Positions 6,777 to 46,835 of a DNA stretch of 64,000 bases are shown here, piece by piece (position 1 is the first letter of the stretch; every line of letters begins with the position of its first letter). Both the position numbers and the translations under genes were made by a program. The notes under the pieces were generated by a model. That model saw only the letters and a program-made list of their open reading frames with translations, made no database searches and was not told where the DNA came from. The stretch comes from Candidatus Dojkabacteria bacterium (lineage in GTDB: Bacteria > Patescibacteriota > Dojkabacteria > SC72 > JAFGCJ01), in NCBI GenBank assembly GCA_016932785.1, contig JAFGCJ010000002.1, positions 13,983-77,982 of the forward strand, read 5' to 3'.

Positions 6777-7112
6777 CTATTCGCTTGATGCAAGAGAGGC
6801 CAGATCCTCTATATTTTCAGCATTGCAAACATCACTCATCTCTACCTTGATTACTGTAAAATTTGATCCTTCCGGTGGAGATTCCAAAAGATCTGAGATT
6901 TCTTTTCCATTTTGGCACGTTGTTGAGCGGTTACCATTCGTCTCAACAATGACGTAAGTGAATGGATCGGTCTCGATCTCAAGTATTTTATTGTCCTCGA
7001 GTTTAATATAGTATTTAGGAAAGGCAATACTTCTTGCAAGAAATCCACATCCGAGTTGAGCTATACATAGAATCACAACTATGACTAAAGTGACCCTCTT
7101 CAAGTCAACCAC
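6777..7112 (-). CDS. Small secreted/membrane-anchored hypothetical protein
   Basis: N-terminal hydrophobic helix (LVIVVILCIAQLGCGF) consistent with a signal peptide or anchor. 111 aa. Confidence 0.3.
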   Translation of the reverse strand: MVDLKRVTLVIVVILCIAQLGCGFLARSIAFPKYYIKLEDNKILEIETDPFTYVIVETNGNRSTTCQNGKEISDLLESPPEGSNFTVIKVEMSDVCNAENIEDLASLASSE

Positions 7113-8362: not shown

Positions 8363-9133
8363 ATGGCGATGATCGATTTGAAAAAGTATTCAGGCCTTGC
8401 TTTGGCATTCGATGGCTCGAAGCTTCTACCTCAGGAGAATGGGATAGAAATCGGATCAAGGGATGTAGTCAATATTGGTGATGTCAGACCTCAGCTTCTC
8501 AACCCTGAGCTTACCTGCCCTACTGTTTTTTATTATATATTCTCAAATATCGACAGAAAGTCTCTTCTTAAGAGGAAACGTCTAAGATTTGACATGTATG
8601 TTATCCCACCCAATCTTGCCGGTATTGAGTATGTAAAGACACTCGGTACTTCTGCTGGGAAATACCCCCTTCTTTTGGAGGTTGTTCATGGTTATCTTAC
8701 TTTGCTGTTGCAGACTTCCAATGAGGAGCCCGGATCGATTCCTCAGGTTAAAACCACGACTATAAGGTTGAAGAAAGGTGAGAAATTGGTGATACCACCT
8801 AACCATGATTTTGTCTTTGTAAATTCCAGGCAGACTCTCTCGGTTGTTGCAATAATGTACAGCTCAAAGTGTAGAATGAAGAATATCTTCGACGATACTC
8901 GTGGAGCGGCAAGCTATGTTATAAGAAAGAACGCGCGATTGGAAACTGTGCTTAATCCTTCCTTCAGGAATGTCAGTATAGTTAAGCCCTGGAAACCTGA
9001 ATCAATTTATAAAGATTTTAACTTAACAGCAAAAACTCCTATTTTCAAACAGATTCTAAGAAAATACCAAAGATTTAAATGGCTTCATGATAATTCTAAG
9101 ATAGAATGGACTAATCTTCCAGGTTGTTACTAA
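8363..9133 (+). CDS. Cupin-fold protein resembling cupin-type phosphoglucose isomerase, with metal ligands not conserved
   Basis: Segments ...TLLLQT... and KLVIPPNHDFVFVNS...VVAIM resemble archaeal cupin-type PGI (MLLQT / VVYVPPYWAHRTVN). The GHFH metal-binding box is replaced by GTSAG. Confidence 0.35.
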   Translation: MAMIDLKKYSGLALAFDGSKLLPQENGIEIGSRDVVNIGDVRPQLLNPELTCPTVFYYIFSNIDRKSLLKRKRLRFDMYVIPPNLAGIEYVKTLGTSAGKYPLLLEVVHGYLTLLLQTSNEEPGSIPQVKTTTIRLKKGEKLVIPPNHDFVFVNSRQTLSVVAIMYSSKCRMKNIFDDTRGAASYVIRKNARLETVLNPSFRNVSIVKPWKPESIYKDFNLTAKTPIFKQILRKYQRFKWLHDNSKIEWTNLPGCY

Positions 9134-25987: not shown

Positions 25988-27525
25988 CGAATAAGGCTTT
26001 TTCCTGTGATTTGCTCTGGTTTATTAATGCCCATAATGTCCAATATTGTTGGCGTGACGTCAGATAAAGCACCACTTTCGAGCATTTCTCTTGTGGTAAT
26101 TCTTTTGGGGGTGGCGAGTATGAATGGGACTGGATTGATTGAGTGTTCGGTATCAGTCTCTCCGGTTTTCAGGTTTGTCATTTCCTCAATATTTCCGTGA
26201 TCCGCTGTTATTATGGCTGTTCCTCCGAGTGAGTGGGTCGCTTTGACGATGTGTTGGACACTTTTGTCTACAGTCTGCATTGCCTTTAAGCCGGCATCGA
26301 AGACTCCCGTATGTCCTACCATATCGCCGTTTGCTAGATTTACAAGAATGAAGTTGTAGATTCTAAGTGAAATCTTCTCAAGGAGAATTCTTGTTACCTC
26401 GGGTAAGCTCATTTCTGGCTTGAGATCGTAGGTTGCAACGTCCGGTGATGGAACTTCGACCCTATCTTCAGCTTGGAATTTGATCGATCTTCCTCCATTG
26501 AAGAAGTACGTGACATGGGGAAATTTCTCTGACTCTGCTATTCTTAATTGTCTTCTTCCATCTTCAGCGATGATTCTGCCAAGAGGAAGACTAATATTCT
26601 CTTTTGGAAATGCTATGTGTTGTGGGATTCCCTTAGCATATTGAGTCATTCCGACAAAAAAGAGGTTTTGTGGTACCTTTTCTCTTTTAAAATAGGTAAA
26701 TTCTGGTGCTATGAAGGCATAAGTTAGTTCTACGGCCCTATCTGATCTAAAGTTGAGGAAGACGAACGCATCGTTGTTTTCAATTGTAATAGGTGTTGAA
26801 GTGCTAGTTATTTGGGTTGGCTGGATAAATTCGTCGGTCTCGCCTCTTTGGTAGGCCTGGTCCAGAGCTTCTTGCCAGGTATTTGCCTCGAGTCCCTTGC
26901 CTTCTGTGAAAAGGTCGTAGGCTTTCTGAATTCTTTCCCAAACCTGGTTTCTATCCATACCGTAGTATCTTCCCCCGATAGTTCCAATTGTGCCGATTTT
27001 GTATTTTTTGAGGAATTCTTGTGTTCTTTTTAGATAAGTAGCGGCGGATTTTGGTGGCGTGTCTCGGCCGTCAGTAAATGCGTGAACGATTACGGGCTGC
27101 TGAAAGTTGTGAAGTGATAGGGTTTTTATGAAGGCCTCCAAGTGGTTGATTGAGCCGTGTACTTCCCCGTCACTGAGGCAAACTGCGACGTGAAGTTTAC
27201 TTTTGTTTTCGTTGGCGTGGTTTATTGCTTCGAGAAATTCCTGATTCTGGAAAAATTGTCCTTTCTGGATCGAGCGGTTGATTCTCGGAAGGTCTTGGTA
27301 GACGACTCTTCCGCTTCCAAGGTTCATGTGGCCGACTTCGCTATTTCCTTTTACTCCGGGGGGAAGTCCGACATATTCTTCAGATGCCTGGAGATATGTG
27401 TGAGGGTAGCTGCTCCAAGCTTTTTCAAGAAATGGTGTAGGAGCTTTGGTTACAGCGTTGCCGGTTGTGTTTGGGGCTATTCCTACTCCGTCGAGTATCA
27501 GTAGTACAACGAGGGTGTTTTCCAT
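25984..27525 (-). CDS. gpmI: 2,3-bisphosphoglycerate-independent phosphoglycerate mutase (iPGM)
   Basis: N-terminal LILDGVGIAP...GNSEVGHMNLGSGRVVYQDL. C-terminal ADHGN metal-binding block. 513 aa. Confidence 0.85.
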   Translation of the reverse strand: MENTLVVLLILDGVGIAPNTTGNAVTKAPTPFLEKAWSSYPHTYLQASEEYVGLPPGVKGNSEVGHMNLGSGRVVYQDLPRINRSIQKGQFFQNQEFLEAINHANENKSKLHVAVCLSDGEVHGSINHLEAFIKTLSLHNFQQPVIVHAFTDGRDTPPKSAATYLKRTQEFLKKYKIGTIGTIGGRYYGMDRNQVWERIQKAYDLFTEGKGLEANTWQEALDQAYQRGETDEFIQPTQITSTSTPITIENNDAFVFLNFRSDRAVELTYAFIAPEFTYFKREKVPQNLFFVGMTQYAKGIPQHIAFPKENISLPLGRIIAEDGRRQLRIAESEKFPHVTYFFNGGRSIKFQAEDRVEVPSPDVATYDLKPEMSLPEVTRILLEKISLRIYNFILVNLANGDMVGHTGVFDAGLKAMQTVDKSVQHIVKATHSLGGTAIITADHGNIEEMTNLKTGETDTEHSINPVPFILATPKRITTREMLESGALSDVTPTILDIMGINKPEQITGKSLIR

Positions 27526-28540: not shown

Positions 28541-29227
28541 GTGTTATTTTTACCCGCGATGGATACGAATTTCATGAAGAAAGTTGAACAGGATACTGTT
28601 AAAAGAAATCTGGATGTGAGGCCTGGCGATACAGTCAAGGTTCATATTCTTATTAAAGAGGCCGGTAAGGAGAGAGAGCAGATCTTTGAAGGTGTTGTTC
28701 TGTCTGTTAGCGGTTCCGGTGCGCGTAAGACTTTTACGGTGAGGAAAATTAGTCACGGTGTAGGTGTAGAGAAGATTTTTCCCGTTAATTCTCCTTTGAT
28801 AAAGAAGATTGATGTTATGGAAAGGGGTAATGCACGGCGATCCAAGCTTTACTATATGAGAAAGAGGATTGGTAAGAGATCTTTGGATGTAAATCTTAAA
28901 GAGGGTTTTGAAGCTATTATTGAAGAGGAAGAAGTTGAGGAAAAACCGGAGAAGAAAGACGAAGAGCCTGCAGAAGAAAAGGTCGAGAAGAAGGCAGAAG
29001 AACCGGCCGAGGAAAAGGTTGAGAAGAAGACTCCCGCAGCCGAGGAAAAAGTTCCTGAAGCAGAAGAAAAATCCGGTGATGCTAAAGAGAAGAAGGCTCC
29101 TGCAAAAGCCAAAGCAGAACCTGAGAAAAAAGACGAGAAAAAAGAACCCAAGGATAACAAGAAATCCGCTGAGAAAGGATCTGAAAAGGCCCCTAAAAAA
29201 GACCCCCCAAAAGAAGCCAAAAAGTAA
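28541..29227 (+). CDS. rplS: 50S ribosomal protein L19 with ~110 aa K/E-rich C-terminal extension
   Basis: L19 core VRPGDTVKVHILIKEAGKEREQIFEGVVLSV...TFTVRKISHGVGVEKIFPVNSPLIKKIDVMERGNARRSKLYYMRKR. The tail contains EEPAEEKVEKKA twice (tandem 30 nt DNA repeat) and further KE/AP repeats. The true start is probably an internal Met near 28559-28574. Confidence 0.75.
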   Translation: MLFLPAMDTNFMKKVEQDTVKRNLDVRPGDTVKVHILIKEAGKEREQIFEGVVLSVSGSGARKTFTVRKISHGVGVEKIFPVNSPLIKKIDVMERGNARRSKLYYMRKRIGKRSLDVNLKEGFEAIIEEEEVEEKPEKKDEEPAEEKVEKKAEEPAEEKVEKKTPAAEEKVPEAEEKSGDAKEKKAPAKAKAEPEKKDEKKEPKDNKKSAEKGSEKAPKKDPPKEAKK

Positions 29228-30407: not shown

Positions 30408-30483
30408 GGGGCGCTAGCTCATCCGGTAGAGCAACTGGCTTTTAACCAGTAGGTGCGGGGTTCGAGTCCCCGGCGCCTCACCA
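30408..30483 (+). tRNA. tRNA-Lys (anticodon UUU)
   Basis: Manual fold: acceptor GGGGCGC/GCGCCTC, D arm GCTC-ATCCGGTA-GAGC, anticodon stem ACTGG/CCAGT with loop CTTTTAA (anticodon TTT), T arm CGGGG-TTCGAGT-CCCCG, discriminator A, encoded CCA. Coordinates are +/-1 nt. Confidence 0.85.
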
Positions 30484-30518
30484 CTTTTTATCGAGTTTTT
30501 TGGATTTTTCTGCTGTTA

Positions 30519-31322
30519 ATGTTATCTAAATATGCAATAAATAAGCAAAAGGGGAATATTGGAGAGGCATTTGTACAGTTTTTCTTATCTAGATTTGCGC
30601 TTGTTCATAAGGTGGATGGTGGAAATGATCTTGGTAATGATTTCTTCTGTGAACTATTTTTGGAGGAATATCCTACGAACATACTATTTTATGTACAGGT
30701 AAAGCTTTGGTGCTCTGAGCCTAGGGTTAAAGAATCTACAAAAGATTATTGGAGAAAGGCTCAGATACCTGTGTATTTATTCTGGGTGAAATGTGCAGGT
30801 AAAGAATTCGATGATATTGTTTTGGACGATGCTTTAGATGAAGCTTCATGGGTAGTTAAATATAAAAGAATGACAGCTGAGTTGCACAAAGAAAAGGCTG
30901 AAGGATTTGAAGATTTTGATTTGTTGAAATTTAAGAGAGATTTAATGATTGATTATGCTAGGTCGATGTTTATACGTGGTTTCACCCCTGTTTTTGATGC
31001 GGGAATGTTTTTCACAGAAAAGGAGAGAAGTAATCTTGACCTGGCTAGATTTCAAAATCCCGCGAGGAGCCTCATAAAGGAAGATCAATACGTAGAGACA
31101 GTACTTGATGAAAGCTGGTCTCATTTTATCTCTGTAGCACATTTGTTACATAGAATGTACAAAGAACTTAAGAAAGAAGAATATTTGAAAGGTGCTGAAG
31201 ACTGCATTAATCTTGCCGAAACATTATATGGAATATCTAATGTCACAGATGTTGATCATGTCTTGGCCTATTTATGGAGCGTAAAGAAAGAAATACGTAA
31301 TTCACGAAATCAGTTAGGTTAA
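30519..31322 (+). CDS. DUF4365-type PD-(D/E)xK nuclease-fold protein
   Basis: GNIGEAFVQFFLSRFALVHKVDGGNDLGNDFFCELF...ILFYVQVK reproduces the DUF4365 pattern (iGE...D.GxD...E...hVQVK, a restriction-endonuclease-like D/E-K core). The ORF-track GTG start at 30453 would overlap the tRNA-Lys 3' end, so the internal Met at about 30519 is preferred. Confidence 0.5.
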   Translation: MLSKYAINKQKGNIGEAFVQFFLSRFALVHKVDGGNDLGNDFFCELFLEEYPTNILFYVQVKLWCSEPRVKESTKDYWRKAQIPVYLFWVKCAGKEFDDIVLDDALDEASWVVKYKRMTAELHKEKAEGFEDFDLLKFKRDLMIDYARSMFIRGFTPVFDAGMFFTEKERSNLDLARFQNPARSLIKEDQYVETVLDESWSHFISVAHLLHRMYKELKKEEYLKGAEDCINLAETLYGISNVTDVDHVLAYLWSVKKEIRNSRNQLG

Positions 31323-39405: not shown

Positions 39406-39567
39406 CTCTTTTACAATCAAAGGACAGTATGCTCTTCCTGATATTGAAATAATGGCCGTATTAAGTGGATATTTTTAATGTCTTCTTATATCGGTCATTA
39501 ATCGATTCAGAAGGAGGTGATGCGAAAAGAAAAGTTTTGTGGATGTTTTTGGGGTTACTAGAAGAAA

Positions 39568-40104
39568 GTGGAGGAAAAAGCTATGAAGAAATTGAAAATT
39601 GCGGGTTTGTTTTTTTTGATCCTTGCCGTGGCACTGGCATGTGCGCCTACCGGCGGTGGAGCAGAAGTTCCACCTACCGAGACGCCTGCACCGACTTTGT
39701 CTCCCACTCAGGCTCCGACATTGGGGCCACCTGCGCCCACAAAGGGGCCAGAGATTCAGACTCAGGAGGCAGAGAAACCGGTCGAGACCCCAGAAATTCC
39801 AGGCTATATGCAGACAATAGAGGCTGGGCATGATTTCATAATAAGCCGTAAGTGTCCTCCAGGCAGCGATTCAACTGCCATAGAGCTGTATATCAACTTG
39901 GACGGGTCTGGTCCCAAAGGGGCCAGTATCCGTGGGGTTGATGGTCTCCTCCAAGAAGGAGATGAGATCATCCGTGTCGTTAAATGTAACGATGAGGGAG
40001 AGGGGGTTCCATACCGATTCGGAATGATAATCGAAATTCGGTACAACTCCGTGGACGTCTGGGTATATACTCCCCCTCTACCTGTTCAAGGTTCAGACCT
40101 GTAA
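39568..40104 (+). CDS. Lipoprotein (lipobox LAC), GC-rich (about 55%)
   Basis: MKKLKIAGLFFLILAVALACAPTGG gives a signal peptidase II lipobox. P/T-rich linker followed by a globular domain. Confidence 0.5.
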   Translation: MEEKAMKKLKIAGLFFLILAVALACAPTGGGAEVPPTETPAPTLSPTQAPTLGPPAPTKGPEIQTQEAEKPVETPEIPGYMQTIEAGHDFIISRKCPPGSDSTAIELYINLDGSGPKGASIRGVDGLLQEGDEIIRVVKCNDEGEGVPYRFGMIIEIRYNSVDVWVYTPPLPVQGSDL

Positions 40105-40372
40105 ATCAGTATGTAAACCATTGGAAGTCGATCCCAAAACTTTCCCGCCTAGAGCGGATGAATTTGTCGCACTGTCCTTTGGTTTACTAAATCAATCGAA
40201 ATTTTGAGTTTTCTCAGGCCTTTTCCTGTTTCTATCAATTTCTGGAACTCCTCAGTAACATTTTCCTTTTCAAAAAAACTTCAGAGTTACATGCAAAATT
40301 ATAAGTACACTCTTCCCTGTGGTATTTGTGATATTACTTCAGCTATAATAGAGCATAAGTTATCCGGGAAGA

Positions 40373-41779
40373 TTGATTTCAAAAATGCAAGACTTGAAAG
40401 ATAAAATTGCAGACTTTTTAGAGAACGTTCCAATTTCGACAGAGCAGCCAGTTTCTTCTTCATCAATAGGCAAGGATTTGAAAGGTGAGACACTCCATTC
40501 TGTGATTGTCTTTTTACAGTTATTTAACTGTGTAGAAATTAAATCCAAAGGAAAGAAAGCGGGAGAATGGAAAGTTAAGTCGGTATCGCCTACCGCCGAT
40601 TATTTTCTCAGAAGTCTTGCGAGATACATCAGAAAAGAAAATTCCTTGATCAGCTCGTGGGCCAAACTTGGGACAACAGACGAGAAGGGTTCAATATTTG
40701 ATTGGGGGACCAAATATCTTGCTGAAATGGAGAAGCGGCGGACAGTGAAATTTAGTGATAAGTATCCAACGAGGCTGGTTTCAGTTTCACAAGCTATTAT
40801 AAAGGCCCGTGTAAAAGGATATGAGGAACCTCTTTTTCTTGTCCAGCTTGATGAAAAGATAGATCAGTACCAGTTCATTGGAGGCAGGAAAATTGGTTCT
40901 GATAAGGATCTTAAGGCAACTATTGAGAGGGAACTAAGTGAGGAGTTGTATAAGAATGACATGGTAAAAAAACATAATTACACGCTGGAACCTTTAGCTG
41001 AGAATATGAGGCATTATGAGATTTCTCCGACATTCGGAGCCTTTACTGAATATACCTTTTCTATCTATCAGATCATGTTTGCTGAGGAGGATATCAAGCT
41101 TGGCGGAGGAGACATATGGGTCTCTGCAAAAGAATTAGAAGCGGAGCAATCTTATGACGGAAAGCATATTAGGTTAACCTTCGAGCCGGAGAAAGTTATA
41201 GGAAAGACATATGATGAACTCCCCTTGTCCACTGTTCGGGTACAGCCGGAGTTTGCTAGAAAAAAGGCTGCCTCAAAAGATTCCACAGCGAGTGCCCAGA
41301 AGATACAGGATCTTATTTCTGAAGGTGAAAGTACTAATCTTGAATTTAAGGCTACAATTAGGTGGGATAAGAGGAGAAATCAGGTCAACAAAGATTTAGA
41401 GAAGGTTGTTGTCAAAGAAATATCGGCTTTTCTAAATTCCAAAGGAGGAACTCTTTTAATAGGTGTTGACGATGATGGGACTGTAATCGGATTAGGTGAT
41501 GATATCAAGACCCTGCGAAAACAGAATCTGGATGGTTATATGCAGGCTGTAGTTAGTCTTATTTCGGATAACATAGGTGTTCAATATTGCTCTAATGTGG
41601 ACGTTTCTTTTGAAAAAATAAATGGTGACGACATTTGCGTTCTTTCTATACGTAAAGCCTCGGGACCTGTGTTTGTGAAGAATAATGATAAAAAAGAGTT
41701 CTATGTTAGAAGGTCAAATACCTCTAGGCTTCTCGATAGTGAGGAAACTTATAACTATATCCTGCATACTTGGGGCTAG
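40373..41779 (+). CDS. Fusion protein: N-terminal region with degenerate Nudix-like box plus C-terminal AlbA_2 (Schlafen-box-like) putative DNA-binding domain
   Basis: C-terminus ESTNLEFKATIRW...VVKEISAFLNSKGGTLLIGVDDDGTVIGL matches the AlbA_2 signature (E..LEFK ... AFaNt.GG.lliGV.d.G.i.Gl). Mid-region YQFIGGRKIGSDKDLKATIERELSEELY resembles the Nudix box (GG...REL.EE) with the catalytic Glu positions substituted. Confidence 0.5.
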   Translation: MISKMQDLKDKIADFLENVPISTEQPVSSSSIGKDLKGETLHSVIVFLQLFNCVEIKSKGKKAGEWKVKSVSPTADYFLRSLARYIRKENSLISSWAKLGTTDEKGSIFDWGTKYLAEMEKRRTVKFSDKYPTRLVSVSQAIIKARVKGYEEPLFLVQLDEKIDQYQFIGGRKIGSDKDLKATIERELSEELYKNDMVKKHNYTLEPLAENMRHYEISPTFGAFTEYTFSIYQIMFAEEDIKLGGGDIWVSAKELEAEQSYDGKHIRLTFEPEKVIGKTYDELPLSTVRVQPEFARKKAASKDSTASAQKIQDLISEGESTNLEFKATIRWDKRRNQVNKDLEKVVVKEISAFLNSKGGTLLIGVDDDGTVIGLGDDIKTLRKQNLDGYMQAVVSLISDNIGVQYCSNVDVSFEKINGDDICVLSIRKASGPVFVKNNDKKEFYVRRSNTSRLLDSEETYNYILHTWG

Positions 41780-41821
41780 GTCTTTACTGCAAGTTCTAAG
41801 TATCCTATAATGGTTAATTAA

Positions 41822-42349
41822 ATGATATCAGGAAATGCTTCAAAACCAAAATTAAGAATACTTATTGTTGATGATGATAAGGGCTGGAGAGAAATTCTTT
41901 CTGATGTAGTCAGTAGAAAATTTTTAGAGTCAGAGTCCGCTGATAAGTACGAACTTGAATTAGTAGTCATCGAGCCTGGTGAAGGCGAAGGTAAACATAT
42001 GGAAGGACGAAAATATATAGAAAGAGCTAGAGATGTTTTGCGTGCAGGCGGTATTCATGGTGCTCTTATTGACTGGAATGTGGGTGATCAAGGAGATATC
42101 TTTATTCCTAAAGAAGATAAGGTCTATACTGGAGAGTTATTGAAGGAGGTTTATGGTATGCGTATCCCTTTGATAGCTGTAACCGGGAGTGGTAAATCGT
42201 TTACTAATTTTGAGGCTCAGTTAATGGAGCAAGGTATAGGACTTGATTCAATAAGAAAGAATACTGTTAGTACATCGGATCCTATTTTCCAGCAATTTAT
42301 TGAGGGAGCCATTTCGCTTTGTGATCAAGAGCTTAAGGGGGGGTATTGA
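41822..42349 (+). CDS. Stand-alone CheY-like receiver (REC) domain protein
   Basis: LRILIVDDDKGWREIL...HGALIDWNVGD...LIAVTGSGK: receiver-fold acidic pocket and phospho-acceptor Asp candidate (LIDW). No output domain. Confidence 0.45.
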   Translation: MISGNASKPKLRILIVDDDKGWREILSDVVSRKFLESESADKYELELVVIEPGEGEGKHMEGRKYIERARDVLRAGGIHGALIDWNVGDQGDIFIPKEDKVYTGELLKEVYGMRIPLIAVTGSGKSFTNFEAQLMEQGIGLDSIRKNTVSTSDPIFQQFIEGAISLCDQELKGGY

Positions 42350-42435
42350 AGGATCCGTTTCAAGTATTGAGAGTTAGTACTGCTCTTGAAGTTTTGTCTT
42401 AGAAGAAGTTCGAAATTTTTTGCCTGATTAGATTC

Positions 42436-42816
42436 TTATTCTTTATTTTTAAATTCCAGGGCTAAGGAGTTTATGCAATATCGGTGTCCTGTCGGCTCTG
42501 GGCCGTCGTCGAATTTGTGACCGAGGTGAGCTCCGCATTTTGAGCAGGTTACTTCTGTTCTATTCATGCTGTAGGAAGTGTCGGGCTGTTCTGTTACGGT
42601 GGCATTGTTTATTGGCTGAAAGAAACTTGGCCATCCGGATTTAGAGTCGTATTTGGCCTCAGACGAAAAAAGTTGCTGACCGCAGTTTACACAGCTATAT
42701 GTCCCCTTTTGGAAATTTTTATAATATTTTCCGCTTCCTGGTGGTTCAGTTCCTTTCAGAAAACAAATGTTGTACTGTTCGTCAGTTAGTTTGGGATTTG
42801 TCTTTCTCAGCAGAAT
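42436..42816 (-). CDS. msrB: Peptide methionine sulfoxide reductase MsrB (not in the ORF track; no canonical start codon)
   Basis: Manual minus-strand translation: ...LTDEQYNICFLKGTEPPGSGKYYKNFQKGTYSCVNCGQQLFSSEAKYDSKSGWPSFFQPINNATVTEQPDTSYSMNRTEVTCSKCGAHLGHKFDDGPEPTGHRYCINSLALEFKNKE*. Contains the CxxC...CxxC zinc motif, GWPSF, HLGH and RYCINS. The only in-frame ATG gives ~50 aa. Upstream to the in-frame stop there are only ATT/CTG/ATA codons. Confidence 0.6.
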   Translation of the reverse strand: MLLRKTNPKLTDEQYNICFLKGTEPPGSGKYYKNFQKGTYSCVNCGQQLFSSEAKYDSKSGWPSFFQPINNATVTEQPDTSYSMNRTEVTCSKCGAHLGHKFDDGPEPTGHRYCINSLALEFKNKE

Positions 42817-42961
42817 TGCTTGAAAAGTTATTTACCAATATTATTTGTTCATTTGTTGGGGGGTTATTGAATTCTTTCTTGTCCATAGTTACCGGATAGT
42901 AAGATGATTTTATCTATTGTAGAACTTTTATAAAAATAATTGAAGGATCTGTGCAGTAATA

Positions 42962-43771
42962 ATGATTGGTTCTGCTATAATCGATTCTGTGCAAAAAAAG
43001 AAGCTATCATACAAAACTGATGACGACATAGATCTAGTTGGAATTCTAACCAGGCCACCTACCCCTTCTTCTGAAAAGGGTTGTGTGATCATGTGTCATG
43101 GAATCACTGTCGACAAGGATGAAGGAGGCACTTTTGTTGGATTATCAAAAAGTCTATATGAGAATGACTTCTCTTCTTTTCGTTTCGATTATCGTGGACA
43201 CGGAGAAAGTGGTGGTAAGCCTGCGGAGATGACTATTACTGGGGAACACAGAGATCTTCAGGCTACAATCAGATTAGTTAGAGAATTGGGGTATCGGAAG
43301 CTATTTTTGCTTGGTGCGAGTTTCGCTTGCGGATCGGTGGCTTTGGAGCTTTCACAAAACGAGGATGATTTTGAGGCAGTTGTGTTGTGGAATCCTGTTG
43401 TGGATTATGAAAGCCTGCTTGAACCTAGATTACCTTGGTCAAAAAAATATTTCGGTCCTGTTGCTGAAAAGAGGGCCAAAGAAAAGGGATACACAAAGGT
43501 CGGCAGTCACGAATTTCCTGTAGGATATAAGCTCTTCAAAGAGATGAGAGAAATTAATCTGTGCGGTCTACTTTCAAGGGTAAGACTTCCGATTCTTTTT
43601 ATTCATGGGGATTGCGATACATATATTCCATATGAAGATACCAAAAAGTGTTCCGAGCTTGTTGAGAATGGCGAGTTATATATAGCTCAAGGTTCAGAAC
43701 ATGGATTTCACGATGAGAATATTCTGGCTGTAGTGATCAAAAAGACTGTGGGTTTCTTTGATATATCCTAG
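42962..43771 (+). CDS. Alpha/beta-hydrolase fold protein (dienelactone hydrolase / BAAT-like)
   Basis: Nucleophile elbow LLGASFACG (GxSxG). C-terminal D...H pair (HGDCDTY...EHGFHDE). Confidence 0.6.
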   Translation: MIGSAIIDSVQKKKLSYKTDDDIDLVGILTRPPTPSSEKGCVIMCHGITVDKDEGGTFVGLSKSLYENDFSSFRFDYRGHGESGGKPAEMTITGEHRDLQATIRLVRELGYRKLFLLGASFACGSVALELSQNEDDFEAVVLWNPVVDYESLLEPRLPWSKKYFGPVAEKRAKEKGYTKVGSHEFPVGYKLFKEMREINLCGLLSRVRLPILFIHGDCDTYIPYEDTKKCSELVENGELYIAQGSEHGFHDENILAVVIKKTVGFFDIS

Positions 43772-44348
43772 ATCTGGAAGTCTGAGAACTTATGCTTTTG
43801 TGTGTTTCAATCTTACCTCTTTATGTTATTATGGATTTAACGTGAGAAGAATTTTAGACCGAAAACTAGGAATGCTACGCAATGCAATATTCGGAGTACA
43901 AGATAGTCTTGGTTCGACTTGTGGTTTTTTGTCTGGTGTGGCAGTGAGTGGTGCAGAGAAGAGATATATCCTGGTTTCAGGAGTGGTTCTGATATTCGTT
44001 GAGGCTTTTTCTATGGCTGTTGGCACATTGATTTCTGAGCACTCGATTGAAGAATTTAATGAGAAAAAAAGCTTGAATATTTTTAGATCGATTAGAAACT
44101 CAGGTGTGATGTTTTTTTCGTATTTTGTTGCAGGGTTTATACCGCTTGTACCCTATTTGATTTTTGATGAGAGGATACGACTTTATATTTCTATAGTATT
44201 CTCTGTTTTGGTGTTGGTGTTATTGGCCATTGTTAATTCAAAACTTCTCGGGTTGAAGGTTGTCCATCATTTGATTGAAATTGTAGTTGTAGGATCGATA
44301 GCAATAGTTGCAGGAGTGATTATTGGGGGACTTGTTTCGGTTGGGTGA
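43758..44348 (+). CDS. VIT1/CCC1-family (vacuolar iron transporter-like) membrane protein
   Basis: FGVQDSLGSTCGFLSGVAVSGA...FVEAFSMAVGTLISE matches VIT-family helices. The probable true start is the Met at about 43873. Confidence 0.5.
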   Translation: MIYPRSGSLRTYAFVCFNLTSLCYYGFNVRRILDRKLGMLRNAIFGVQDSLGSTCGFLSGVAVSGAEKRYILVSGVVLIFVEAFSMAVGTLISEHSIEEFNEKKSLNIFRSIRNSGVMFFSYFVAGFIPLVPYLIFDERIRLYISIVFSVLVLVLLAIVNSKLLGLKVVHHLIEIVVVGSIAIVAGVIIGGLVSVG

Positions 44349-44585
44349 TTGTTTACTTCGAAACCTCTAGAATGTCCAATTGTTAAGAGAAATTCTTAAT
44401 AATGTAGTCAGGTTTATGCCCTTTTTTCTTTGTAAGCCTTTTTCCATCAGGATTAAACCAGGCTGTGTCTATCCCTACTTTCTGAATTTCAATATTTATA
44501 GTCTATCTTTTGGTCTGATTCAAATGTATTTTTAACCTTTTTAAGTGATTGACTTATATTGAGCTAAAATACTACACTTTAAGCT

Positions 44586-45266
44586 ATGGATTCAATTAAG
44601 GAAGCCGAGAAAAAATTAGCAGGAAGAAAGGCACCGGAATTTTTGAAAAATGGTATGGTCGTTGGATTAGGTTCAGGCAGTACCGTTCCCTACGCAATCG
44701 AACGGATAGCGGAGCTGGTCTCTCAGGGTTTACAGATAACGATGGTCTCGACTTCGAACAAGACTAGTGCCTTGGCAAAAAAGTGCAAACTTGAGATCTC
44801 CGGTATCGACTCTATAGATAGAATCGATGTGACAATCGATGGAGCCGACGAAGTAGATCCTAACATGCGAGGGATAAAAGGAGGAAAAGGTGCGCTTCTT
44901 TTTGAGAAAATTGTTGCCTCTATTTCGGATAAAAACATCTGGATTGTGGACTCAAGTAAACTTGTTGAAAAATTAGGTAAGTTTCCTTTATCGGTTGAGG
45001 TTGTTCCATTTGGTCTAAAGACTGTATTGGCAGAATTCCAAAGAAGAGGTTTTAAATCTGAGATTAGGGTACGTGAAGGAGAAAAATACTTGACTGATAG
45101 CGGGAATTATATTGTTGATCTTCATCTTGGCTCGATCGAAAATCCAGAAGAACTTGATGTGGAACTGAATATGATTCCAGGGGTTGTCGAGAATGGGTTG
45201 TTTGTTGGCTATGCTGATATGGTGATTGTTGGAAGGGGTAAGGAAACAGAGATTACTAGTCGCTAG
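44586..45266 (+). CDS. rpiA: Ribose-5-phosphate isomerase A
   Basis: GMVVGLGSGSTVPYAIERIAEL...IDGADEVDPNMRGIKGGKGALLFEKIVA (RpiA active-site blocks). Confidence 0.8.
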   Translation: MDSIKEAEKKLAGRKAPEFLKNGMVVGLGSGSTVPYAIERIAELVSQGLQITMVSTSNKTSALAKKCKLEISGIDSIDRIDVTIDGADEVDPNMRGIKGGKGALLFEKIVASISDKNIWIVDSSKLVEKLGKFPLSVEVVPFGLKTVLAEFQRRGFKSEIRVREGEKYLTDSGNYIVDLHLGSIENPEELDVELNMIPGVVENGLFVGYADMVIVGRGKETEITSR

Positions 45267-45320
45267 TGGCTGGATGTTTCTGTAGATCAATATTTTGATT
45301 AATGACTTCCAGTCTGATTC

Positions 45321-45959
45321 CTAGATCCTTCCGCCGCATTCCGGACAAAACTTCGTATCAGCTTCAATCTCTTTTCCACACTTGGGGCACTTAATAGTCG
45401 AAGACAATTTCTCACCACATTCTCCGCAGAATTTCGCGTGAGCCTCTATTGTTGCACCGCATTTGGGACAAGTCGCTACTTTAGCGTCGTCCCAGTCTTT
45501 TTCTGATAGATGTTTGTCTTTTTTTGCCATTCTTGCGTGTGCGAATGCCTCTTCCTTTGAATGTTGCGCTTGGGCGGCAGCCATCTCCTCCCCTAGTTCG
45601 GGTGCGCATTGTTTGCATAAACCCCTGTCCTCATTCCAGCAGACTTCTTTGCAAACCCACGTCCCACATCTTTTACACTGTGCAAATTTAGGACTTATTT
45701 CTTGTACAGCCTTCTTGAGTGCCTTGTCGTGCTGGGGTCCTGCGGCCATCCTGTGAATATCGTCTGATGTTGATGCTAAGTTTGAAGCTGTTCCACCAAG
45801 GAAACCTCCTACTATACCTAGTGCACCAGAGACCACACCTGTTGCCGATTTTTGAAATGTACTCATATAACCATTTCCGCACCTTTCACATATGAATTTG
45901 AATTGATAGCCTTTGTCGGTGGATAGGTCTTGGTAGTTATCTGTAAAGGGAATGTCCAT
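45321..45959 (-). CDS. Multi-zinc-ribbon protein
   Basis: Six or more CxxC pairs (CERCG; CKRCG...CKQC; CPKCG...CGECG; CPKCG...CPECG). Central hydrophobic/Gly-rich segment. Confidence 0.45.
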   Translation of the reverse strand: MDIPFTDNYQDLSTDKGYQFKFICERCGNGYMSTFQKSATGVVSGALGIVGGFLGGTASNLASTSDDIHRMAAGPQHDKALKKAVQEISPKFAQCKRCGTWVCKEVCWNEDRGLCKQCAPELGEEMAAAQAQHSKEEAFAHARMAKKDKHLSEKDWDDAKVATCPKCGATIEAHAKFCGECGEKLSSTIKCPKCGKEIEADTKFCPECGGRI

Positions 45960-46145
45960 TTTTCTAAGGGTAAAAACTTATCTAGCTCTTCGAAGAACTT
46001 AATTATTTATAGAATCGGCTAGTACAAAATATTTTATGTCATATGGCTCACTTCATCAATGGTCTGTTTTTTAATATTGTTCACACAATCTTCACAGGTT
46101 ATATGTTTTATTCATTGTTTGATCTCGTAAGGTGAATGTATTATT

Positions 46146-46835
46146 ATGAGTTTTATTATGAAGTGGAGATTTCTAACAATATTGACGGTTGCCATTGCTG
46201 GTCTCATTGCCCTTCCTGTGGCTGCTTTGGCATGGGACGACTGTCCTCATGGTGAGGTGAATGATGAGTATCCAGGTGACTGTCCAAGGTATGTAGATAC
46301 TGATGGTGATGGGATCTGTGATAGGAGCCAACCTGCTCCCGAGGACAGAGTTACTGAAGAGGAGACCTATGGGCAAGATATTGAAAGCACAACGGAGATT
46401 ATTGCGAGGCGAAATACAGATTCCAGTAATAATGAAACCTCCGATAGTTCTGCTGATTCTGGAAATAGCTCCTCGAGTAAGGGAAAAAAGTCTTCTCACT
46501 ATAATTTTGTAGTTCCCTTTTTTACGTCCTTGGTACTCTATCTGATTTCTTGGTATCTTGCTAAGAGTAAGAAAATTGAAAGATATATCATGCCTATTCA
46601 CAATGGGATTTGGAATACGGTTCTACTTGTCTCTCTCATTCCGTCGGTAGCATTTGGTTTTTATTTAGTGCTCCGATATGCCTTCCCTGAGATAAGGATC
46701 AGCTACTTTGATTTTCTGTATTGGCATGTGGAAGGTTCCATTGTCATGGGGACCGTGGCTATTATGCACCTCATTCAAAGGCTTACTACCTATATAGGAC
46801 AGTTAAAACTAGCTGGAAGACTGCTAGGAAAATAA
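46146..46835 (+). CDS. Secreted/membrane protein with Cys/Asp-rich metal-binding-like N-domain and C-terminal TM helices
   Basis: Signal peptide. DCPHGEVNDEYPGDCPRYVDTDGDGICD. S/N-rich linker. Three or four C-terminal TM segments. Confidence 0.35.
   Translation: MSFIMKWRFLTILTVAIAGLIALPVAALAWDDCPHGEVNDEYPGDCPRYVDTDGDGICDRSQPAPEDRVTEEETYGQDIESTTEIIARRNTDSSNNETSDSSADSGNSSSSKGKKSSHYNFVVPFFTSLVLYLISWYLAKSKKIERYIMPIHNGIWNTVLLVSLIPSVAFGFYLVLRYAFPEIRISYFDFLYWHVEGSIVMGTVAIMHLIQRLTTYIGQLKLAGRLLGK

Follow-up and report, generated by a model that had tools for sequence, protein, structure and literature searches.

An msrB gene with ATA in the place of a canonical start codon in a Candidatus Dojkabacteria genome

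We analyzed a 64-kb stretch of the genome of a Candidatus Dojkabacteria bacterium (the window). On its minus strand, positions 42831 to 42436 form a frame of 131 open codons followed by a TAA stop (42438-42436); the features below lie on this strand, and their positions are given in reading direction, unless the plus strand is named. The first-pass annotation had recognized an MsrB (SelR) domain in this frame, and profile searches confirmed it. The product matches Pfam SelR, PF01641, with an E value of 1.8e-49 (166.9 bits against a cutoff of 24.9, profile positions 1-115 of 116) and the NCBIfam MsrB equivalog domain, TIGR00357, with 164.4 bits against a curated cutoff of 113.05 (profile positions 9-126 of 134). 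Solved MsrB structures align to it as well, with a best E value of 1.4e-39, and the catalytic cysteine motif RYCINS (residues 117-122, 42483-42466) aligns to the RYCINS of the solved MsrB3, 6qa0. Both zinc-binding CxxC motifs can be read directly, CVNC at residues 47-50 (42693-42682) and CSKC at residues 96-99 (42546-42535), and GWPSF and HLGH are present too. The resolving cysteine before GWPSF is absent: the sequence here is SKSGWPSF, and the closest homologues have SKTGWPSF or SESGWPSF. This cysteine belongs to the two-cysteine MsrB subclass only and does not define the family. From these features, the gene is predicted to encode an ordinary stand-alone MsrB enzyme of the zinc-site type without a resolving cysteine.

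The coding part is undamaged and shows no decay. At columns conserved in at least 90% of sequences (n = 60), the product departs twice, while the median for the homologues is one departure and the 75th percentile is two. One of the two departures is V106K, a lysine for the near-invariant valine of HLGHVF/GHVF (42528-42511), and the 107 other stand-alone homologues in the alignment all lack lysine at residue 106. Residue 88 has changed from glycine to serine, and serine is found there in two homologues too. The length of 131 amino acids is typical, most homologues having 120 to 135. Domain, motifs, and length are thus those of stand-alone bacterial and archaeal MsrB proteins (TIGR00357, PF01641); the gene differs from them in starting with ATA rather than with ATG, GTG, or TTG, and in V106K, which is peculiar to it.

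Besides the GenBank copy, we found no orthologue with more than 70% identity in a protein database of 5.8 billion clusters. The best match was 61% identical in the GTDB representative genomes and 68% identical in JGI metagenome contigs, and the best homologues, all at most 70% identical, are taxonomically scattered. Codon usage of msrB is 0.106 log-odds per codon, 2.5 standard deviations below that of the window's genes (0.302 ± 0.077). Atypical codon usage together with scattered relatives is consistent with an acquired accessory gene. The gene may therefore be foreign, and perhaps on its way out. The flanking genes (42962-45266) have no close relatives either: for the neighboring alpha/beta hydrolase, MBN2100447.1, the next best match is 49% identical, and for RpiA the next best matches are 58 to 59% identical, the named ones coming from WOR-3 and Ignavibacteria. 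The region is therefore either phylogenetically very isolated or a mosaic of acquired genes.

On the other side, msrB is convergent with a 175-amino-acid ORF on the plus strand (41822-42349). The convergent arrangement had been described correctly in the first-pass annotation, but its label of a receiver-domain gene did not hold up, since the ORF has no Pfam or NCBIfam match even at an E value of 5 or below. The ORF does open with a receiver-like stretch, KLRILIVDDD. We found no intrinsic terminator between the convergent genes. Two genes away from msrB, a 468-amino-acid protein encoded on the plus strand (40373-41779) carries a C-terminal Schlafen AlbA_2 domain (E value 3.2e-21).

On its upstream side, the msrB frame is closed by an in-frame TAA (42834-42832). 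From this stop to the conserved KLTDEQY block (42792-42772), the frame offers three kinds of near-cognate codon and no others: an ATA, which is the first codon after the stop (42831-42829), an ATT (42816-42814), and CTG CTG (42813-42808). The first canonical in-frame start is the ATG of Met89 (42567-42565), and a start there would delete both the first zinc CxxC and GWPSF. We thus agree with the first-pass annotation on three points: no ATG, GTG, or TTG precedes the domain, the sole in-frame ATG costs the protein its zinc-binding N terminus, and ATA, ATT, and CTG are the only start candidates. In a stop-to-stop survey of the window, the first canonical start of this frame was at offset 88 of 131 codons, deep in the conserved domain. 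When shadows of other genes are set aside, msrB is the only such ORF in the window. Seven codons upstream of the ATA, and in the msrB frame, lies a mini-ORF, ATG AAC AAA TAA (42852-42841). We rejected its ATG at 42852 as the msrB start because two in-frame TAA stops lie between them. When the sequence was read upstream of the ATA, ATT, and CTG codons, no Shine-Dalgarno-like sequence was seen.

The gene is already in GenBank. The record MBN2100446.1, [quoted passage not shown] on a contig of 598,548 bp, corresponds exactly to the msrB frame and reads the ATA, the start selected by PGAP, as methionine. The earlier statement that the gene is missed by the ORF track is therefore right for lists restricted to ATG, GTG, and TTG and does not extend to GenBank. 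Such lists drop real genes, which homology-guided pipelines such as that of NCBI recover. In NCBI translation table 11, ATA, ATT, ATC, and CTG are allowed as rare starts, and a homology-guided pipeline can settle on whichever permitted codon comes first after a stop. A start assigned in this way says nothing on whether the protein is made, and the ATA in the GenBank annotation is no evidence of its use.

A second assembly of the locus, made with a different assembler, is available as Logan contig SRR13394437_159065 (run SRR13394437, 71,961 bp), which we found by using the neighboring hydrolase protein as an anchor. It is identical to the window from 39962 to 46771, at 6,810 of 6,810 positions, the 5′ region of msrB included. 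An exact look-up of the MsrB protein itself in the contig index gave no match; the gene callers used there rely on canonical starts.

A -10-like hexamer, TAATAT (42843-42838), was picked up by our scan 6 nt upstream of the ATA; its first half is the TAA of the mini-ORF. If this putative box functions, transcription is predicted to start at or next to the A at 42831, a leaderless-type geometry. The scan counted a TANNNT hexamer with at least four of six matches to TATAAT that ends 6 to 7 nt before a start. Such a box stands before 10 of the 60 long ORF starts in the window, compared with 2.8% of random and 4.2% of intergenic positions (binomial P = 6.6e-6). A match at the spacing of TAATAT is expected by chance at 3 to 4% of positions, and its spacing of 6 is the modal one at the window's starts. 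TAATAT is without the TG extension found in the window's clearest leaderless-type promoters, and no good -35 element was seen for it in the sequence. Within 2 to 20 nt upstream of the ATT and CTG codons, no -10-like box passed the scan criteria.

The closest msrB homologues show similar arrangements: TATAAT-6-ATG in L081, TATAAT-6-GTG in L093, and TATAAT-7-ATG in L036. In further homologues the spacing is 9 (L082 and L107) or 13 (L084, L014, and L110). When we aligned the DNA of the 5′ region with that of the closest homologues, only the -10 box-like ATAATATTGG was common, with L081. Since the remainder could not be aligned in frame, we did not use this alignment as evidence of homology.

Many genes of the window have a TATAAT-like box, often TGn-extended, 6 to 7 nt before the start and without a Shine-Dalgarno sequence; examples are at 8363 on the plus strand and at 27525, 37697, 5991, and 63923 on the minus strand. 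The geometry suggests that a sizeable share of the mRNAs of this Dojkabacteria genome may be leaderless. We searched the literature for leaderless translation in CPR bacteria and found no relevant report. The presence of the box at about one sixth of the window's genes may be more useful than the case of msrB itself.

The length of the N terminus was compared with that of homologues by counting the residues before the L of the conserved K-L-T, which number 3 to 17 in 108 stand-alone homologues. A start at ATA gives 14, a start at ATT 9, and starts at the two CTG codons 8 and 7; these last three are the modal lengths in homologues. TIGR00357 aligns from its position 9 at residue 13 of MsrB, and this leaves eight profile positions for residues upstream. 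As judged by these comparisons, the ATA start would give an N terminus of normal length. The protein would then begin MTFQAILLR, and its N-terminal 13 residues, TFQAILLRKTNP, are unlike the hydrophobic-KKK pattern of homologues. We also scored alternative N termini with a profile HMM, namely those from the ATA, ATT, and CTG starts and from 22 simulated single-base deletions that fuse an upstream ORF to the msrB frame. All scores lay between 218.6 and 224.8 bits, a spread of about 6 bits at most, and profile scoring does not separate these alternatives.

Taking this evidence together, we somewhat favor the ATA at 42831-42829 as the initiation site, with a start-codon substitution having occurred at a promoter-proximal, leaderless-type start. 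msrB would then belong to the class of genes whose -10 box sits 6 to 7 nt before the start codon. Its mRNA would be leaderless or nearly so, with transcription beginning at or next to the A of the ATA, which would be the ancestral start site. In the simplest history, an accessory gene of unusual codon usage would have had its ATG turned into ATA by a single G-to-A transition, a type of change that often arises spontaneously in A+T-rich genomes. The consequence would be either low translation from a near-cognate codon or very recent silencing of the gene. The gene with its intact motifs, the lack of a canonical start, the same sequence in two assemblies, and the enrichment of the -10 geometry are observations; the transcription start, the ancestral ATG, and the present level of expression we infer from them. 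The first-pass annotation had offered a rare initiation codon, a recent start-codon mutation, or an upstream frameshift. The -10 geometry, the N-terminal length, and the architecture of homologues favor the first two; the third is disfavored.

Would a gene of this kind be expressed? In mycobacteria, leaderless translation needs ATG or GTG at the 5′ end, and no other codon works (PMC4633059). On leadered mRNAs of E. coli, AUA initiates at about 0.1 to 3% of the level of AUG (10.1101/063800). Given the weakness of AUA and the AUG/GUG rule for leaderless mRNAs, a leaderless AUA gene should be nearly silent. Near silence is hard to square with a streamlined genome in which this ORF is perfectly intact. 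That the gene is expressed as it stands, the 5′-terminal AUA of a transcript starting at or next to the A at 42831 being translated, we regard as improbable. If it were true, the ribosomes of this CPR bacterium would accept a near-cognate codon for leaderless initiation, unlike those of the model bacteria tested. Specialists in translation would find such a relaxation of the AUG/GUG rule for leaderless initiation moderately interesting; otherwise, the case matters little beyond annotation.

Two known situations resemble the one proposed here. In mycobacterial leaderless genes, the -10 box lies about 7 nt before an AUG or GUG that is itself the 5′ end of the mRNA (PMC4633059). The box of msrB is at 6 nt, but the first codon is AUA, and the transcription start is a predicted one. 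The E. coli genes infC and pcnB, which start with AUU (cited in 10.1101/063800), likewise have a near-cognate codon where homologues start. In msrB, however, the codon is AUA rather than AUU, no Shine-Dalgarno sequence is seen, and nothing points to conservation or to a regulatory loop.

A different origin of the N terminus is conceivable. An ORF of 34 codons, MDKKEF...KDKSQTN, runs from an ATG at 42886 to a TGA at 42784-42782. It shares 47 nt with the msrB frame, and a +1 shift would lead from its frame exactly into that of msrB. Translation could begin at this ATG, giving a protein that starts with MDKKEFNNPPTNEQ; the two frames would belong together if the present sequence carries one inserted nucleotide somewhere from 42831 to about 42795, or if ribosomes shift by +1 in that interval. 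In that case, the locus would be a pseudogene that has recently suffered a frameshift; programmed +1 frameshifting is a much less likely variant. We consider this unlikely, on the following grounds. The gene caller applied to the Logan contig called the 34-codon ORF as a gene, and its codon-usage score of 6.4 is nearer to that of coding frames (10.0 ± 4.6) than to that of off-frame sequence (-3.7 ± 5.2); but 14% of random open frames drawn with intergenic composition reach such a score (P of about 0.14), and similar upstream ORFs in another frame run across about 5 of 58 real starts. A promoter-like TTTATA-16-TAAAAT (42934-42907) lies upstream of the ATG, yet the number of such sites, one, is lower than the 2.4 expected in shuffled sequences, that is, fewer than chance. 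The fusion would also place 32 residues before the L of K-L-T, about twice the longest N terminus among the 108 stand-alone homologues. Among 1.84 billion representative proteins, the 34-residue peptide has no relative but itself, and in a search with the fused sequence, the alignments to MsrB homologues never covered this part. No other frameshifted gene was seen among the roughly 60 genes of the window.

The programmed variant invites comparison with prfB, the gene of RF2 and a programmed +1 frameshift system. There too, a short 0-frame ORF ends in UGA-C, the stop context shared by the 34-codon ORF, and the main product is read in the +1 frame. The likeness goes little further. We saw no CUU-U slip site beside the stop, where AAC UGA C leaves no option for re-pairing, and no Shine-Dalgarno-like or GGAGG-like stimulator; in addition, the upstream peptide shows no conservation. 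As to the two-frame arrangement, the homologous msrB loci that we examined, none of them closer than 70% identity, do not need a shift. Since the codons for the conserved K-L-T come before the UGA, a shift at the stop as in prfB is excluded. A run of four T residues (42826-42823) would let tRNA-Phe re-pair after a +1 slip; it is the only re-pairing site and has no distinguishing feature. A stable RNA structure is missing as well (fold z = -0.95). The suggestion of a programmed event in the first-pass annotation thus finds no support, as slippery and stimulatory motifs and significant structure are missing and the peptide has no relatives.

Near-cognate initiation could also take place on an mRNA with a leader. 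Transcription would begin near 42900, and MsrB would be initiated at the ATT at 42816, at a CTG at 42813 or 42810, or at the ATA, perhaps by translational coupling to the overlapping upstream ORF. The level of MsrB would then be deliberately low, comparable with what AUU starts do for infC and pcnB. We think this rather unlikely. The ATT and CTG starts do give N termini of 9, 8, or 7 residues, the modal lengths; the ORF is undamaged, and the promoter-like site lies upstream of 42900. Such initiation has also been measured, with near-cognate codons working at 0.1 to 3% of AUG in E. coli (10.1101/063800) and ATT working well as a start with a Shine-Dalgarno sequence in mycobacteria (PMC4633059). 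Here, however, neither the ATA nor the ATT nor the CTG codons are preceded by a Shine-Dalgarno-like sequence, and the ATT and CTG codons are not preceded by a -10-like box. There is no sign of conservation, no other gene of the window uses such a start, and coupling would need a backward movement of about 25 to 47 nt from the stop of the upstream ORF.

An error of sequencing or assembly, which the first-pass annotation had listed as an option, would mean that the real sequence reads ATG at 42831-42829 or is one base shorter in the overlap, and we consider it very improbable. In favor of an error, the genome was assembled from a metagenome, and the two assemblies probably go back to one set of reads; but an assembler artefact is unlikely because the GenBank contig and the Logan contig agree at all 6,810 positions, and no broken gene was seen elsewhere among the approximately 60 genes of the window.

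Two further ideas can be dismissed. Reassignment of the genetic code is ruled out, as TAG, TAA, and TGA end 24, 20, and 16 long ORFs, respectively, and ORFs of up to 1142 amino acids are intact under table 11; with all three stops in use and msrB the sole case, there is neither recoding nor a genome-wide use of odd starts. A riboswitch or other RNA element in the leader is ruled out as well, since Rfam finds only two tRNAs in the window and the fold z is the -0.95 given above.

Several other features of the window deserve mention. On the plus strand, at 28541-29227, a ribosomal protein L19 domain occupies residues 11-113 of a 228-amino-acid ORF, and the C-terminal extension, about 115 residues long, matches no family. 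Also on the plus strand, at 39465-40104, two overlapping ORFs of 122 and 178 amino acids lie in different frames and have no Pfam match; the pair could be one frameshifted gene or include a shadow ORF. Finally, a tRNA-Lys(UUU) gene is found at 30408-30483 on the plus strand, and a mechanically called ORF (30453-31322, plus strand) opens with GTG at 30453. Because this GTG lies inside the tRNA gene, the true start of the ORF is further downstream.
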